From: Escherichia phage vB_EcoM_011D4
Direction: 5' to 3' (one strand)
Sequence record: MT478991.1
Length of the DNA: 64,000 nt
Under the pieces are notes generated by a model, which was not told the DNA's origin, ran no database searches, and saw nothing but the letters and a program-made list of their open reading frames with translations. Below are positions 10,310 to 17,573 of the stretch, piece after piece. Made by a program: the position numbers and the translations under genes. Position 1 is the first letter of the stretch. Each line of letters begins with the position of its first letter.

Positions 10310-10966
10310 ATGCAAGTTTCTGAAAAAGGGAAAGACTTTGCTATCTCAAATGTCCTGCGCGCTATTTTCACAACTAAAAGCACGGAGTTGCTCGTACTTC
10401 GTGTTTTTGCTGCCGTCGTGTTGTCCATATTAGCATTTGTCGTTTATAGTAAAAACGAGTTATTTGCGCTTTATAAAGAGACTCGTTATGAGACTTATGC
10501 TCACGTTCTCCAGGTAGAGAAAGACCGCAATTTTGATAATGCAGCACAGGAGCAGTTACAGATAGTTCATGTGTCGGCTGATGCCGATTTTTCTGCTGTT
10601 TTTAGTTTTCGTCCGAAAAACCTAAACTATTTTGTTGATTTGGTGGCATATGAAGGAAAGCTACCGCATACAATCGATGAAAAAAATTTAGGCGGATTCC
10701 CTATCAATAAAACGAGTGAAGAATATCGTAGACATCTTTTAGGTAAATCCTATTTTACCGATAAAGATTTCCAGTATATTCCATCAAGAGAAAAGAAATT
10801 AGAGAGTATCGATATAGGGGTTATGTATTCTTGTCCTATATTCAATCTCGATAATGTCTATTCTGGTAGTATCTCCATTGCATGGAAGAATAAACCGGAT
10901 ATTGACATTGAGAATTTAGATACTCTTTGCAATCAATCTGCCAGAATCCTCGGAAGGATTAGATAA
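10310..10966 (+). CDS. t: holin (T4 t-type, 218 aa)
   Basis: Same length as T4 T; strong identity to T4 holin (EQLQIVH.S.DADFSAV.SFRPKNLNYFVD..AYEGKLP...RILGR). Confidence 0.92.
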   Translation: MQVSEKGKDFAISNVLRAIFTTKSTELLVLRVFAAVVLSILAFVVYSKNELFALYKETRYETYAHVLQVEKDRNFDNAAQEQLQIVHVSADADFSAVFSFRPKNLNYFVDLVAYEGKLPHTIDEKNLGGFPINKTSEEYRRHLLGKSYFTDKDFQYIPSREKKLESIDIGVMYSCPIFNLDNVYSGSISIAWKNKPDIDIENLDTLCNQSARILGRIR

Positions 10967-10970
10967 CTTA

Positions 10971-11003
10971 AAGGGGAAGCCTTTCGGCCTCCCCTTCTTT
11001 TTT
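10971..11003 (+). terminator. rho-independent terminator (AAGGGGA..GCC-tttc-GGC..TCCCCTT + T-run)
   Basis: Long GC hairpin then TTTTTTATT after the t stop, at the convergence point of plus and minus transcription. Confidence 0.7.
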
Positions 11004-11250
11004 ATTGACGCATAGACGCGCCTGAATCGCATTTTGACGCTGTATGATGAAAACATGTAGCGTACCAGTCATCGGCTTGTTTGTCTTCGTCAGAAAACGC
11101 GTAATTTCGTTGTATGCCGTTTTCTACTTTGACCAGTGCAATAGCTGTTTCTGGAAGATCAATCAATCGGACAAAATCACCATCTTCCCACTCTACACGA
11201 GCAATATCATAGCCCATCTCAAAGTATACAATCGCTTGTTCTAATTTCAT
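11002..11250 (-). CDS. hypothetical protein (82 aa)
   Basis: ORF track; start overlaps stop of upstream gene. Confidence 0.45.
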   Translation of the reverse strand: MKLEQAIVYFEMGYDIARVEWEDGDFVRLIDLPETAIALVKVENGIQRNYAFSDEDKQADDWYATCFHHTASKCDSGASMRQ

Positions 11251-11570
11251 TCTGGAAACTTCCCGTAAACATTCTCTGCCAACTTACGTGCATCTTTTAC
11301 AATATCTTTCATGTAATGACTATAATTTTTAGCTAGATCAATGATACAATCAACAAAGAAGTAATAGCGTCGCAGTGCTACCAGCTCAACATCTTCAAGA
11401 TGACCATTTTCTCCAATCGATGAAATATATTTAAATTCCTTTCGGATCGCGTCCATCGCTACATTAACTTCTTTTATAATATCTTTAGTATTATATGCAC
11501 CTCGACTAATCAAAATTTTGGTTATGTCTTCTGCTTTTTCGTGAAAGTTGTCAATTTCAAACTCGATCAT
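11247..11570 (-). CDS. hypothetical early protein, paralog of 11685..12017
   Basis: Refined ATG at 11570 with GAGAGGTGA RBS (track start 11576 is a GTG extension); C-terminus ...ENVYGKF. Confidence 0.55.
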   Translation of the reverse strand: MIEFEIDNFHEKAEDITKILISRGAYNTKDIIKEVNVAMDAIRKEFKYISSIGENGHLEDVELVALRRYYFFVDCIIDLAKNYSHYMKDIVKDARKLAENVYGKFPE

Positions 11571-11684
11571 AATCACCTCTCATAATTTCACGCTGTTGTT
11601 TCAACATTTTTTCGTGGTTTGCTAATTCTATACCTTGTAATAGCATAACCAGTGCAATTTTCAATGATTCATCATCTTTCATAA

Positions 11685-12017
11685 TCAAAATTTACCGAAA
11701 ATATTCTCTGTCATAATTCTTGCTTCGTCGATTATTTTCGTCATGTTCATGGTGTAGTTATGATCATTTAGTGCTTTAATAACAACGAGCAAGGAATCTA
11801 AAAACACTCGATACCGGGTATATTCTACGCTATTTGTGAATACCGATGTTTTCTCGACTTTATCGATCAGATAGCCTAAAACCGATAGCGCCTCGTTTAC
11901 TTCCCTTGTTACTTTATCGGCGCTAAACAACACCGGATAAAGACGCGGTGTGATTAACCGCGCTGCCTCTTTCAATTCGGTTGCTTTCCATGATTCATAT
12001 TTGTCATAATTAAACAT
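11685..12017 (-). CDS. hypothetical early protein, paralog of 11247..11570
   Basis: ORF track; aligns with neighbour (EVN.A...Y..F.D..I...Y...KII.DAR...EN.FGKF). Confidence 0.55.
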   Translation of the reverse strand: MFNYDKYESWKATELKEAARLITPRLYPVLFSADKVTREVNEALSVLGYLIDKVEKTSVFTNSVEYTRYRVFLDSLLVVIKALNDHNYTMNMTKIIDEARIMTENIFGKF

Positions 12018-12029
12018 TGTATAATGTCC

Positions 12030-12362
12030 TTACAGATGAAAACCTGTTACAATCACCGCATCGATCATACCGCTAGGAATAAACGGTTCACCCTCTTTTA
12101 TTTCAACTTTGAATTGATGCCATTTCGCTAATACTTCTTCCGGTACACCCAGCGATTCGGCGTCTGCTTTAGTTTCATCCATAATCCAACTAGGCTGCAT
12201 GAGAGCATAGTTTACATAGTCCATTTCTGGGGTCATGTCATCAATGTTAATATATTTGCAGTTGACGCGTTTCAGAATTTCAAATTCTTTATTGTCAACC
12301 TGTACCATGTATAATTCAGTAGTTTCTGGAATCAGTTCCCACACAATCAGTACATTTTTCAT
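12030..12362 (-). CDS. hypothetical protein (110 aa)
   Basis: ORF track; minus-strand early block. Confidence 0.5.
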   Translation of the reverse strand: MKNVLIVWELIPETTELYMVQVDNKEFEILKRVNCKYINIDDMTPEMDYVNYALMQPSWIMDETKADAESLGVPEEVLAKWHQFKVEIKEGEPFIPSGMIDAVIVTGFHL

Positions 12363-12370
12363 AGTTCACC

Positions 12371-12739
12371 TCACTTAACAAAGATTTTCTTTAATGCTTT
12401 CAGGATCGTTGCTTCCGGCGCTTCTTCCGGTGGAGGAAGCAATTCTACCACTTCCTCTTCCAACTCGATATAGTCTACCAGATATTCTACATAGAATGCA
12501 AGTGCTTCCATGAAATTAAATGCTACATCCGATTCACCACAAGCGCCCACATGCATTGTATAAACATCACTGCGATCAAGTTTGTGGATGCTTCCCAGAT
12601 AGTTTCGGTTATACCAGACTTCCCACACTTTCAACTTTCCGGTTTTTGTTGATGTTTTATAATCGGTTTCGTAATGATGCAATTGACGTTGCAAATCATT
12701 GATAATAACACATTTTTCGTAATTGTTTTGAATTTCCAT
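12371..12739 (-). CDS. hypothetical protein (122 aa)
   Basis: ORF track. Confidence 0.5.
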   Translation of the reverse strand: MEIQNNYEKCVIINDLQRQLHHYETDYKTSTKTGKLKVWEVWYNRNYLGSIHKLDRSDVYTMHVGACGESDVAFNFMEALAFYVEYLVDYIELEEEVVELLPPPEEAPEATILKALKKIFVK

Positions 12740-12749
12740 GATGTAATCC

Positions 12750-12941
12750 TCACTTATCGTTAAGAAGTTCTAAAACTTTCTGTCGTACTTTGTCAATATT
12801 AGTTGATTCAAAAACTGTACGGTATCCCCAGCTTTGACCGTATGATCGCGAGCAATCCCCATATCCCCATTGTTCAACCTGATAGTATTCAAGGAATGGA
12901 TGTTGCCGAACTATGATACCATCGCGATTAAAAATTACCAT
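12750..12941 (-). CDS. hypothetical protein (63 aa)
   Basis: ORF track. Confidence 0.4.
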   Translation of the reverse strand: MVIFNRDGIIVRQHPFLEYYQVEQWGYGDCSRSYGQSWGYRTVFESTNIDKVRQKVLELLNDK

Positions 12942-12964
12942 AATATAATCCTCACGTCAACAAC

Positions 12965-13252
12965 TTATTTTCGGTTGTGGTCACGATATGTTTTAAAATA
13001 TCCCTCGTACCACGGTAAAACATCTGGATTTTTACCACTATACAGACCTTTAACCATCATGTCAATAAGACCGTCCGGTGTTTGATAATTACCAGCTTTT
13101 ATAAGCTCTCTGATTAAAATTTCCCTGTATATGTCTTTCGGATCTTCGTAATCAACTTGTATCGTGGTTGTTGTCTCGCTTAATTTGGTTTCTGGAGTAT
13201 CTTGCATCGCCTTCCACCAATCTTTTGTAATCTTCATGTTATTGAATTGCAT
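12965..13252 (-). CDS. hypothetical protein (95 aa)
   Basis: ORF track. Confidence 0.5.
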   Translation of the reverse strand: MQFNNMKITKDWWKAMQDTPETKLSETTTTIQVDYEDPKDIYREILIRELIKAGNYQTPDGLIDMMVKGLYSGKNPDVLPWYEGYFKTYRDHNRK

Positions 13253-13263
13253 AATTTAACCTC

Positions 13264-14022
13264 TTACTTGCAAACGTATTGATCTACATCAATTGCGCCA
13301 CCGAATGTAGGATGACGTTTTTCAAATCGAATAGTTCCGTCGTTTGGTTCGAAAACGGAGTATTCATATAGATCTTTCTTGCCAACATTCTTATAAAACC
13401 CGCCTTTAGTCATAACGGTTTCTTGTACGTTTGCTTTGTGTACGTTGTATTCATCAATGTATACAAAATCAACCATCTTCCCATTTTTAATGGTTACTTT
13501 AAGATCTCCTGGTTGATTTCCATATTTGGCATACAGTGGCGCTTCTTTAATTTTTGTGGAAATTCCATCTTTCATACTCCACTCATAACGAACGGTGCAT
13601 TGATAGGTAAAAGTTTCGACCTTCGGTTCTTCCACCACTTTTTCTTCCTGTTTCGGTTGTTCTTCGTCAACCTTCACAGAAGTCTCTGAATCGCTTTCTG
13701 ACGCGGTTTCTTCTTTAGGTAATACATTCATCAAGTTTTGGATTTGAGCGTTGTATACAGCCTCCAGTGGCTGAATCTGCCCGATATTGATCATTGTATC
13801 ACGAATAGTTTTATTCCAGTTGCGTTGCTCTTGTTTAAGAGACGGATCAATCTTAACAGCCTTAACATATACTTCATGAAGTTTCGAATCCAGCGCGGAG
13901 ATAGACTCGTTAGCACAAATAAACTTCTCTGATTTGGTAGTCGCTTTAGCGCAATCAAAGGACGCAGCGTTAGCACCGAAAGCAGTAGCAGAAAGAACGA
14001 TAGCAGCGATAATGTTTTTCAT
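13264..14022 (-). CDS. secreted protein with N-terminal DUF1311/LprI-like (lysozyme-inhibitor-like) domain (252 aa)
   Basis: Signal peptide MKNIIAAIVLSATAFGANA; then C..KA.T..E..IC...L..LD..L..Y......QR.W motif typical of DUF1311; acidic/lysine-rich linker; Cys-bounded C-terminal domain. Confidence 0.65.
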   Translation of the reverse strand: MKNIIAAIVLSATAFGANAASFDCAKATTKSEKFICANESISALDSKLHEVYVKAVKIDPSLKQEQRNWNKTIRDTMINIGQIQPLEAVYNAQIQNLMNVLPKEETASESDSETSVKVDEEQPKQEEKVVEEPKVETFTYQCTVRYEWSMKDGISTKIKEAPLYAKYGNQPGDLKVTIKNGKMVDFVYIDEYNVHKANVQETVMTKGGFYKNVGKKDLYEYSVFEPNDGTIRFEKRHPTFGGAIDVDQYVCK

Positions 14023-14049
14023 AATATATTCCTCAATGTTTTTCTTGAT

Positions 14050-14084
14050 GGGAGTATCTTACTACTCCCTTAATCCGGTGTCAA
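14050..14084 (-). promoter_or_regulatory. PeSL-type early promoter: TTGACA-17-TAAGAT with GGGAGTA/TACTCCC stem-loop
   Basis: On minus strand -35 at 14084..14079, -10 at 14061..14056, perfect 7-bp inverted repeat 14050-14069; upstream of 13264..14022. Confidence 0.6.
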
Positions 14085-14091
14085 CTACTTT

Positions 14092-14304
14092 TTAATTTTT
14101 ACCCGCTCGTGCATTAATACGCATTTTCTGCATAGCCATGATCTGGTTTACTGCTTCTTCTTTACGTTCTTGCGTGATAACGTGACCAGATTCCGCAAAC
14201 TCTCCAGAGACCTCTTCCACGATCTCGCGAACTTGAGAACGTCCAAAGATGCGGTTTCCTTCGTAGCTCATAAACTCTGTTACTACTTGCTCGATAGATT
14301 TCAT
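14092..14304 (-). CDS. hypothetical protein (70 aa)
   Basis: ORF track; GGAG RBS; preceded by PeSL. Confidence 0.55.
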   Translation of the reverse strand: MKSIEQVVTEFMSYEGNRIFGRSQVREIVEEVSGEFAESGHVITQERKEEAVNQIMAMQKMRINARAGKN

Positions 14305-14327
14305 GTGATTCTCCTTTCGTTTGGTAT

Positions 14328-14362
14328 GGGAGTATCTTACTACTCCCGTTTCTTTACGTCAA
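14328..14362 (-). promoter_or_regulatory. PeSL-type early promoter: TTGACG-17-TAAGAT with GGGAGTA/TACTCCC stem-loop
   Basis: -35 at 14362..14357, -10 at 14339..14334, stem-loop 14328-14347; followed by AAAGGAGAATCAC ATG. Confidence 0.6.
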
Positions 14363-14369
14363 CTGGTTT

Positions 14370-14612
14370 TTAGAAATTTTTCGCTTCTTCTTCGGTCATC
14401 ATAACCGCGCATTCGTGCATAACTTTGAAAACCGGATCAATCATGTCGAATGCTTCGCGAGACAGTTTACGAGAAGCGATTTTGATTGCTTCAACGTCTT
14501 CTACTACAGGAACAAAAACAGTTTTCAGTTCATCGAGCACGGCAGCTTCTTTTTCATTCAGGAAGATTCCAGCGTCGTACAGTGCAACTTCGATAACATT
14601 AACTTTAACCAT
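14370..14612 (-). CDS. hypothetical protein (~80 aa)
   Basis: Refined ATG at 14612 with GGAGG RBS (track start 14675 is a TTG extension that runs into the promoter). Confidence 0.55.
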   Translation of the reverse strand: MVKVNVIEVALYDAGIFLNEKEAAVLDELKTVFVPVVEDVEAIKIASRKLSREAFDMIDPVFKVMHECAVMMTEEEAKNF

Positions 14613-14640
14613 TTTTATTTCCTCCAGTTCGTTTCGGTAT

Positions 14641-14675
14641 GGGAGTATAATACTACCGATGACCTTTGGCGTCAA
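14641..14675 (-). promoter_or_regulatory. PeSL-type early promoter: TTGACG-17-TATTAT with short AGTAT/ATACT stem
   Basis: -35 at 14675..14670, -10 at 14652..14647. Confidence 0.5.
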
Positions 14676-14886
14676 CTGCTTTTTTATTATTTTCGTGAAA
14701 ATTTTTCGTTGCCTCTAGGTTCTTTTCGACCTTCATCCATTCCGCGTATTCTTGCGCGGCTACTTTCGGATTTAGTCCGTCTTCGTACATTGCATCGAGT
14801 AATTCTTCGTCGGTGGGCTTATACCCTAGATAAGCCTCCACCTGATTTTTCCAAATTTTATACCAGTTCATATTATCACCAATCAA
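14653..14886 (-). CDS. hypothetical protein (77 aa)
   Basis: ORF track. Confidence 0.45.
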   Translation of the reverse strand: MIGDNMNWYKIWKNQVEAYLGYKPTDEELLDAMYEDGLNPKVAAQEYAEWMKVEKNLEATKNFHENNKKAVDAKGHR

Positions 14887-15148
14887 GAGCGCGTGTCTCT
14901 GCGTCTTCCCATGCTTGATCCATTACAGCCTTAAAAACATACTCTAGAGTATCATCTTTAGAGAATCCGAAGACTTTAGACGGAATATCTTCGATTGCTA
15001 CTCCCGCAACTTCTGCATTACGCGCTTGGCAATAATGCAACTCTAAGTTATCGAGATAGCGACCGCCTAATTTCTCCATATCATCCCAGCATTTCCAGTA
15101 ACCTACTTTATCTGCAATTGCTAACACTTTGCTGTTTTTGTTGCTCAT
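14876..15148 (-). CDS. hypothetical protein (~90 aa)
   Basis: Refined ATG at 15148 with AGGAGAATCAAAG leader (track start 15238 is an extension). Confidence 0.55.
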   Translation of the reverse strand: MSNKNSKVLAIADKVGYWKCWDDMEKLGGRYLDNLELHYCQARNAEVAGVAIEDIPSKVFGFSKDDTLEYVFKAVMDQAWEDAETRALDW

Positions 15149-15179
15149 CTTTGATTCTCCTTTTGTTTGGGATGGGTGT

Positions 15180-15208
15180 ATTATGCAATGATGGATTTGT
15201 GAAGTCAA
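15180..15208 (-). promoter_or_regulatory. early promoter TTGACT-17-CATAAT
   Basis: -35 at 15208..15203, -10 at 15185..15180; immediately downstream of the terminator at 15214-15248. Confidence 0.5.
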
Positions 15209-15213
15209 CAACT

Positions 15214-15248
15214 TTTTAAAATAAAAAGCCGACCACAAGGATCGGCTT
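15214..15248 (-). terminator. rho-independent terminator (AAGCCGA-loop-TCGGCTT + TTTTTATTTT)
   Basis: Near-identical hairpin to the plus-strand terminator at 5325; on the minus strand followed by a U-tract, just after the stop of 15258..15653. Confidence 0.7.
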
Positions 15249-15257
15249 AATAATCAG

Positions 15258-15653
15258 TTACTTACTAAATTTCTTTTTGGCTTCGTCTACTGCATGAGAT
15301 GCCAGTACCGCTGCCGCATGTGCACTTTTATCTGTGTTGCAGAGAACACCCAGATAAACATCACGCCAAAGTTTAATCATCTCGTAGATCATATCAATAT
15401 CATTTTCTTGTTTGTTGGCGATGCTATTCGTTGTTATCTGGTAAGGTAACGGCTTAATCTGTACTGGTTCCGCCATCGGGCTAATCGGTTTCGGATCAGT
15501 CATAATAGGTGCTGTTGTGTGTGGTGTTTTCCATACGCCATTATTCCACGGTTTAATCGTTGTATCGTAAAGTTTATAAGGATTTTTGTCTGGGTCAACC
15601 ATCCATGCATGATGAGTACCCAAACCATTTGAAGTGATGCGTCGTTCAGTCAT
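15258..15653 (-). CDS. hypothetical protein (131 aa)
   Basis: ORF track. Confidence 0.55.
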   Translation of the reverse strand: MTERRITSNGLGTHHAWMVDPDKNPYKLYDTTIKPWNNGVWKTPHTTAPIMTDPKPISPMAEPVQIKPLPYQITTNSIANKQENDIDMIYEMIKLWRDVYLGVLCNTDKSAHAAAVLASHAVDEAKKKFSK

Positions 15654-15656
15654 AAT

Positions 15657-15860
15657 TTATTTCCTCTCTGATAATTCTTTCATCAAGCTGTCGATCTTTG
15701 CTCTGTGTTCTGGCGTGTTTGTCATCTCTGCTAATTTGCTCAGAGATTCACTGGTGATCCGGTTGGATTCTTCCAGTGTTTCAACGACAATTGGCACAAT
15801 CTTTTTATTGTTGTACAGAAATGCAATATAACCGCCTTCTGGATATTCTTTCATAATCAA
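15657..15860 (-). CDS. hypothetical protein (67 aa)
   Basis: ORF track; immediately downstream of gp52. Confidence 0.45.
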   Translation of the reverse strand: MIMKEYPEGGYIAFLYNNKKIVPIVVETLEESNRITSESLSKLAEMTNTPEHRAKIDSLMKELSERK

Positions 15861-17203
15861 CCCTTCTTAAGTTCTTTAAGATCTTTCTTATATTCCTTCA
15901 TTGCGGTCGTCTTTGTCCAATACTCATATTCACTATGATGTTTATCGGCATCTTTGACCAGTCGATCATACTCTTCTTGAGTAACGCTATACAATGGCAT
16001 AGAAACGAGTTTATCGGCGTATGGACGCAGTTTTTCATGTCCATTGATAGATTGCATTACCTCGGCCTTTTTCTTGCCCTGTAGCTCGATTTCGCCCTTA
16101 ATTACAAGGTCGATAAATTCGGCTTTAGCCATTGCATAATTGTATGCTTCCAGCGTTTCCGCTTGCATCAATTCAATGCGTTTATCGACATACCCTAATC
16201 GGATTTCGACGAATCGACGGATCAGATCGCTCGCTTTCTCGAATACTTCAACTAAGCCACGTTCATTAACTACCACGATATTCTGGGCTACTAACTGCGT
16301 TAGTTTAAAATCCTTCATGATTTGCTCATGTCGAGCGTATTCATCTTCGCTTTTGAAATAATCGCGTTTCAGTGTTACTTCAAATCTGAATCCGTCCTTA
16401 GAGCAACGGTCATTATACGATACAATCAGATCTTTTTCTTCCAGCGCATCCAGTACCGCTACATATTCTTCACGGTCGAACTTATAAGGAACTTCTGATA
16501 TTGTCAGTTTAGTCTTGCCGTTTAGTTCATATGTACCCTCAAGAATCACACCATCGCGATCATCTCGCGGGATAACTTTACCCGTGAATTTTGGGAATTG
16601 AACACTAGGTTCTTTATCCAGTTTTCCGGCAAGTGCTAGCTCTGTGCATTCAATGAGGCTTTCCAGTGAATGCGGTAAAATGTCGGTTTTATACCCTGTA
16701 GCAATACCACTAATACCATTTGCCAATACCATTGGCACAACTGGCAAGTAGAACGCTGGCGGGATGTGTTCCAGGTCTTCGTGCTTAGGTGCGCAATTCA
16801 TATCTTTATAGATTTTAAAGAAGTTTTCATGCACACGAGCAAAAATATAACGTGCTGCACCTGCTTTCTGGACTAAACGCGATCCGAAGTTACCTTGACC
16901 GTCAAGCAGTGGAGTATTATTGCTCCATGTATTCGCCATGAGTGATCCGGCTTCTACGGCATTAGTTTCCCCGTGGTGATACCCCAACTCAGCGACACCA
17001 GATCCAATATCTGCCATCTTACGGAATTTCTTACGGTCGCCTTTACTCTTTTGCAAAGCACATTCCATAACAAAGCGTTGCACTGGTTTAAGACCATCAA
17101 CTAATTGAGGAATCCCGCGTTCCTCGGCAGAATAGATCGCATATTCCTTAGCTTCATTATGTACAATGCTTTCAAGGCTGCGGTAAGTAACTGATTTATT
17201 CAT
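15857..17203 (-). CDS. 52: DNA topoisomerase II medium subunit gp52
   Basis: Refined ATG at 17203 with GAGGTG RBS (track start 17218 is GTG); strong identity to T4 gp52 (GIPQLVDGLKPVQRF, YHHGE, GQGNFGSR, YIFARV). Confidence 0.92.
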   Translation of the reverse strand: MNKSVTYRSLESIVHNEAKEYAIYSAEERGIPQLVDGLKPVQRFVMECALQKSKGDRKKFRKMADIGSGVAELGYHHGETNAVEAGSLMANTWSNNTPLLDGQGNFGSRLVQKAGAARYIFARVHENFFKIYKDMNCAPKHEDLEHIPPAFYLPVVPMVLANGISGIATGYKTDILPHSLESLIECTELALAGKLDKEPSVQFPKFTGKVIPRDDRDGVILEGTYELNGKTKLTISEVPYKFDREEYVAVLDALEEKDLIVSYNDRCSKDGFRFEVTLKRDYFKSEDEYARHEQIMKDFKLTQLVAQNIVVVNERGLVEVFEKASDLIRRFVEIRLGYVDKRIELMQAETLEAYNYAMAKAEFIDLVIKGEIELQGKKKAEVMQSINGHEKLRPYADKLVSMPLYSVTQEEYDRLVKDADKHHSEYEYWTKTTAMKEYKKDLKELKKG

Positions 17204-17210
17204 CTTCACC

Positions 17211-17573
17211 TCATACACGCTTACAAATCACATTCTTTACTTTATCAGATTTATCAGCCCAATCCAATAGCCATTTTAACGGAAGGATTGAAACAATAAA
17301 CGGGGCAGCAATCAAAGCAAACATGATACACCGGATAATCAGGAAAGCGCAAGTAACAAAGCTAGCGATAGCGATCCCGACAAAACAAAATACCATAGAA
17401 AACAGAGTAATGATATAGAAAGGCCAGAATACCCACTCCCGCATCTTAACGCCTTTGTATTCTCTGAATTGCTTAAAATCTACAAACAACTCTCGGATAG
17501 ACGCGTACAGGACCGAAAAATCATCTTTCATTGCTCTGAATGAGCAATCTTCTATTTTAGAATGACCTAGCAT
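17211..17573 (-). CDS. small membrane protein (two or three predicted TM helices)
   Basis: Hydrophobic stretches FWPFYIITLFSMVFCFVGIAIASFVTCAFLIIRCIMFALIAAPFIVSILPL; occupies the T4 ac/stp/ndd region. Confidence 0.5.
   Translation of the reverse strand: MLGHSKIEDCSFRAMKDDFSVLYASIRELFVDFKQFREYKGVKMREWVFWPFYIITLFSMVFCFVGIAIASFVTCAFLIIRCIMFALIAAPFIVSILPLKWLLDWADKSDKVKNVICKRV

Follow-up and report, generated by a model that had tools for sequence, protein, structure and literature searches.

The interval between holin t and gp52 in Escherichia phage vB_EcoM_011D4 (MT478991.1), within the 64,000-nucleotide stretch that was analysed (the window), is best explained as the t–52 hyperplastic region of Krischvirus, the RB49-type T4-like coliphages. 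It carries 15 small accessory genes, tightly packed on the early strand. Taken as a whole, this explanation is held with good confidence. The 58 phage records that match the window at 94–98% identity are all of the Krischvirus type. The hyperplastic region of RB49 and phi1, with its PeSL cassettes, has already been published (Arbiol 2010, PMC2839356), and the island, which the sequence-only reading had treated as unrecognised, equals this region. As a previously described, variable "plug-in" region of RB49-type coliphages, it is overall ordinary and largely known, and two of its genes, ORFs A and I, provide modest new leads.

Gene content and conservation

The island is composed of 15 consecutive minus-strand ORFs of 41–252 aa, which occupy ~92% of its 4.86 kb (Table 1). 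Fourteen of them reach at least 60 aa, in line with the "about 14" counted from the letters alone, and both flanking genes proposed at that stage are confirmed by Pfam. The ORF starts agree with the RB49 and phiS annotations, and the ORFs equal RB49p255–p268. The products are small, mostly acidic and soluble, with pI values of 4.4–5.0 for E, F, K, M, and A.

Table 1 Genes and regulatory elements between holin t and gp52 (window coordinates).
Feature	Coordinates	Strand	Description
holin t	10310–10966	+	Pfam Phage_holin_T, 3.4e-60
t/A hairpin	10965–10998	.	between convergent t (+) and A (−); dG −23.2 (minus-strand RNA), −16.8 (plus-strand RNA) kcal/mol
ORF A, 82 aa	11002–11250	−	RB49p255; short-form Tad2-like (DUF2829), candidate immune-signal sponge
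ORF B, 107 aa	11247–11570	−	RB49p256; phrog_9457, 1.7e-55; paralogue of D
ORF C, 41 aa	11557–11682	−	RB49p256.1; phrog_17009
ORF D, 110 aa	11685–12017	−	RB49p257; phrog_9457, 2.7e-43; pN/pS 0–0.14; paralogue of B
ORF E, 110 aa	12030–12362	−	RB49p258; acidic, pI 4.4; phrog_4658; pN/pS 0–0.03
ORF F, 122 aa	12371–12739	−	RB49p259; homologue of T4 arn.4
ORF G, 63 aa	12750–12941	−	RB49p260; discrete gene cassette, common to rV5-like phages
half-PeSL remnant	12942–12972	−	AT-rich stretch + GTTGAC, fused straight to the G ribosome-binding site
ORF H, 95 aa	12965–13252	−	RB49p261; phrog_15915
ORF I, 252 aa	13264–14022	−	RB49p262; signal peptide, DUF1311/LprI, linker, β-barrel
PeSL 1	14050–14099	−	promoter cassette 14056–14084; −35 GTTGAC, stem GGGAGTA/TACTCCC, −10 TAAGAT in loop; dG −11.9 kcal/mol, z −4.95
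ORF J, 70 aa	14092–14304	−	RB49p264; phrog_14966; pN/pS 0.04–0.43
PeSL 2	14328–14369	−	promoter cassette 14334–14362; exact motif match; hairpin dG −11.9 kcal/mol, z −4.68; assigned promoter of J
ORF K, 80 aa	14370–14612	−	acidic; variable module
PeSL 3	14647–14690	−	promoter cassette 14647–14675; TTGACG-17-TATTAT, 10/12 matches; assigned promoter of K
ORF L, 72 aa	14653–14871	−	related to RB49p265; phrog_8655, residues 4–54 only
ORF M, 90 aa	14876–15148	−	RB49p266; acidic; phrog_7287
promoter cassette 4 + leader	15145–15208	−	promoter cassette 15180–15208; TTGACT-17-CATAAT; assigned promoter of M and L
intrinsic terminator	15226–15248	−	9-bp stem then TTTTTATTTT; dG −13.5 kcal/mol, z −4.56; U-tract
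ORF N, 131 aa	15258–15653	−	RB49p267; phrog_15644; pN/pS 0.03–0.17
ORF O, 65 aa	15657–15854	−	RB49p268; start 2 nt past the gp52 stop codon, no intervening promoter
gp52	15857–17218	−	Pfam DNA_topoisoIV, 2.9e-68

Against five related genomes, pN/pS is well below 1 for nearly all ORFs (A, D, E, F, G, H, I, J, K, M, and N), similar to the gp52 values (0.02–0.05), and most ORFs are under purifying selection. The exception is ORF C, which shows only non-synonymous differences across the comparators (0 synonymous and 5 non-synonymous relative to RB49) and is the weakest gene call of the island. ORFs B and D are paralogues, with 37% identity over 43 aa (blastp E 9e-7), and both match phrog_9457. The paralogue pair noticed by the sequence-only reading is therefore real, but it is not strictly tandem because ORF C separates the two copies; the divergent relative L011 has a single B/D-type copy.

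Judged from their homologues, the island genes form a mosaic from several phage lineages, with a KP15-like E, an rV5-like G, a T1-like M, and an F related to T4 arn.4. ORF E is common to other non-T-even T4-like genera, with 36–41% identity in KP15-type Klebsiella, Cronobacter, Enterobacter, and Citrobacter phages, and M is common to T1-like siphoviruses, with 45–48% identity in Salmonella, Citrobacter, and E. coli phages of about 50 kb. ORF G shares 87–92% amino acid identity with Vequintavirus phages; the DNA identity spans exactly the ATG to just beyond the stop codon, the flanks are unrelated, and L011 lacks G.

These data bear on the reading that most of the ORFs bring no benefit to the phage, as evolutionary debris or as selfish genes that travel with PeSL cassettes. 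Every PHROG match of the island ORFs is annotated "unknown function", near-identical phages differ by gained and lost modules, ORF C changes only non-synonymously, and L has an unstable 3′ end, all in agreement with such a reading. We nevertheless consider it very improbable, given the gp52-like constraint on eleven ORFs, the persistence of A, E, F, H, I, J, M, and one B/D-type copy in the divergent relative at 33–97% protein identity, and the retention of G, M, and E in unrelated phage families. The 12 ORFs other than A, F, and I are real genes, for which no functional lead was obtained.

Promoter cassettes and module exchange

In RB49 and phi1, where they were described and assayed with lacZ, PeSLs are strong sigma-70-type promoters with the −10 box in or beside a G+C stem-loop, and the AT-rich tract ahead of them contains the upstream stop codon (PMC2839356). 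According to this work, from which we take their promoter and terminator activity, PeSLs work with the unmodified RNA polymerase of the host immediately after infection, their hairpins reduce read-through, and their repeated sequence provides the homology by which single-gene modules can be excised or inserted. All four promoter cassettes and the terminator predicted from the sequence were located in the island. By raw number, sigma-70-like sites are no more frequent than chance predicts (14 found versus 15.0 ± 4.3 expected); the extended motif GTTGAC-N10-GGGAGTA-N6-TACTCCC occurs four times in the window versus 0 expected, and further variants are also present. The hairpins of PeSL 1 and PeSL 2 have z-scores of about −4.8, and PeSL 3 is a variant with a degenerate stem and a weak fold (z −1.4). 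The stop codon of J is located in the AT-rich 5′ part of PeSL 1, and that of L lies inside PeSL 3. In addition, the half-PeSL remnant before G is kept in all five comparators.

These elements would divide the region into the units gp52-O-N, ended by the intrinsic terminator, M-L, K, J, and a nine-gene unit that starts with I and finishes after A, at the hairpin it shares with holin t. The last four units would each be driven by a PeSL, and we infer that PeSL 1 is the promoter of the nine-gene unit. ORFs O and N are probably transcribed as part of the gp52 unit and not from a promoter cassette. The t/A hairpin, which has a U-tract on the plus side only, is likely the end of both transcription units. 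No T4 late-promoter motif is found within the island. The sigma-70-type promoters, the lack of a late motif, and the small, mostly acidic, soluble products together fit an early accessory island, as had been proposed, and the genes would be expressed early in this phage.

Gene gain and loss is restricted to 14.0–15.2 kb, and the differences from the comparators all lie between I and N. Three of the four indel junctions fall within PeSL sequence, among them the one at 14082–14099 in PeSL 1. The RB49 deletion junction at 14363 is at PeSL 2, and this indel (14363|14720) has only one end in a PeSL, whereas the junction at 14712–14728 is inside the coding sequence of L. In FL04 and SSG23, a 68-aa gene module has its junction at promoter cassette 4. 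ORF K, which has no PHROG or Pfam match, is present in phiS, ELT4, FL04, and SSG23 and missing from RB49. The 3′ end of L varies between phages and runs into PeSL 3, so that only 69–75% of the gene is alignable in RB49, ELT4, FL04, and SSG23; in L011, an unrelated 136-aa gene takes the place of N. ORFs A, E, F, H, and I and a B/D-type gene form the old, t-proximal part, which a divergent relative also has, and modules come and go at 14.0–15.2 kb.

ORF A and ORF I

By Pfam, profile–profile comparison, and predicted fold, ORF A is assigned as a short, divergent Tad2/DUF2829 protein. Its score for PF11195 (Tad2-like) is marginal, at 27.9 bits versus a gathering score of 25, and two distant homologues also exceed the threshold; the earlier statement that none of the ORFs shows a motif thus does not hold. 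Comparison with 13 tested Tad2 proteins aligns A over its full length (hhalign Prob 93.3, E 2.7e-7). The AF2 model, built on 4 sequences (pLDDT 74), has MoTad2 (8v3e) as its top Foldseek PDB match (prob 0.99, TM 0.54/0.59, E 0.074), and searches of the PDB by sequence, including a profile search, gave no match for A. UniRef already names the protein "Tad2-like domain protein". Tad2 is a phage sponge family that inhibits Thoeris I/II/IV, CBASS, and Pycsar signalling. Most likely, A would form homo-oligomers and act early in infection as a Tad2-type sponge, binding an immune signal derived from a nucleotide (of the Thoeris, CBASS, or Pycsar type). On this sequence and model evidence, an anti-defence reading of the island is plausible for A only.

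It is possible, although we do not favor it, that A is merely a structural relative of DUF2829/Tad2, with a different role or with ligand binding lost. Consistent with this, the scores are marginal, A has a Tyr at the position of the near-invariant central Trp of the Tad2 family, and it lacks the β2–α2 insertion that shapes the pockets in MoTad2. Moreover, the closest tested short-form homologue, Tad2_80, inhibited 0 of 4 testable systems in a published screen, in which several other Tad2 homologues were also inactive, and the A family is tiny outside Krischvirus-like phages. However, A is under very strong constraint (pN/pS 0–0.09, with 0–2 non-synonymous changes across five genomes), stays adjacent to t in divergent relatives at only 49–59% identity, and conserves the terminal signature residues G13, R18, W21, and D61–W62. 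Since the ligands of tested Tad2 proteins are very diverse, inactivity on seven systems is compatible with another ligand, and the sponge remains our preferred reading.

ORF I corresponds to the secreted DUF1311 protein recognised earlier (Pfam LprI 24.3 bits versus a cut-off of 22). It comprises a Sec signal peptide (residues 1–20, cleavage ...FGANA|AS), a four-helix DUF1311/LprI domain (about 24–100), an acidic disordered linker (104–131), and a nine-strand β-barrel (135–251) closed by Cys142 and Cys251, and is predicted to be exported to the periplasm. Over its 5′ half, the gene shares ~95% nucleotide identity with one located at the end of E. coli prophages, where a truncated 5′ remnant of H comes after the I homologue. 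The DUF1311 part is invariant, whereas the barrel is hypervariable, a swapped and highly divergent cassette.

DUF1311 proteins provide immunity in the periplasm against T6SS effectors that target the cell wall. Most likely, I would inhibit or modulate a cell-wall hydrolase and may thereby shield the infected cell (or lysogen) from lysis from outside or from superinfection, although the LprI-domain protein ScwA conferred no lysozyme resistance. Rather unlikely, in our view, is that I instead serves as a periplasmic ligand- or receptor-binding protein, either a lipocalin-like carrier or a protein that hides an envelope component from other phages that use it. The variable barrel would then track variable envelope targets, and the location of the gene at the prophage cargo end, where lysogenic-conversion and exclusion genes are common, would be in keeping. 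By fold, the closest matches are small barrels of a generic kind (Cap15, NHBA, TbpB, fHbp, FABP, and lipocalins), which score equal to or above lysozyme-inhibitor barrels, and no Pfam MliC match is found in I. Conversely, the PliC, PhiA, and ACP barrels align with that of I over 82–86 residues at 2.8–3.1 Å, and the only experimentally tied DUF1311 roles are periplasmic antagonism or regulation of cell-wall hydrolases. The hydrolase-inhibitor reading also agrees with the architecture of M. tuberculosis LprI, in which DUF1311 is followed by a small barrel, the identical two-domain order.

Comparison with the T4 t–52 interval

In T4, as the sequence-only reading stated, the interval between t and 52 holds asiA, arn, and motA, and its position is syntenic with the island. 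This synteny, together with the small acidic products E, F, K, M, and A, which resemble AsiA and Arn, and the homology of F to a gene of the T4 asiA–motA cluster, would suit non-homologous functional replacements of AsiA, MotA, and Arn that redirect RNA polymerase or block restriction. We regard this as improbable. None of the island ORFs matches AsiA, AsiA.1, Arn, MotA, or MotA.1 (all tblastn E > 0.1), and no DNA-binding or sigma-binding domain is detected among them. Furthermore, a motA orthologue and middle-mode promoters or motifs are both reported to be missing from RB49 (PMC1524935), and a MotA/AsiA-type switch is therefore not expected. The suggested role in host transcription takeover accordingly found no pointer in the island.

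The proposed lack of recognisable T4 counterparts is contradicted by ORF F, which matches T4 arn.4 (tblastn 2e-6 against the T4 t–52 region; blastp 1e-8, 29% over 62 aa), the gene of Y16F, a 12.8 kDa protein of the asiA–motA region. The annotation note of RB49 also supports this homology, and the F homologue in L011 contains PF26821 (Phage_T4_Y16F). Compared with the T4 interval, the island is without homologues of AsiA, MotA, and Arn, but has one of arn.4.

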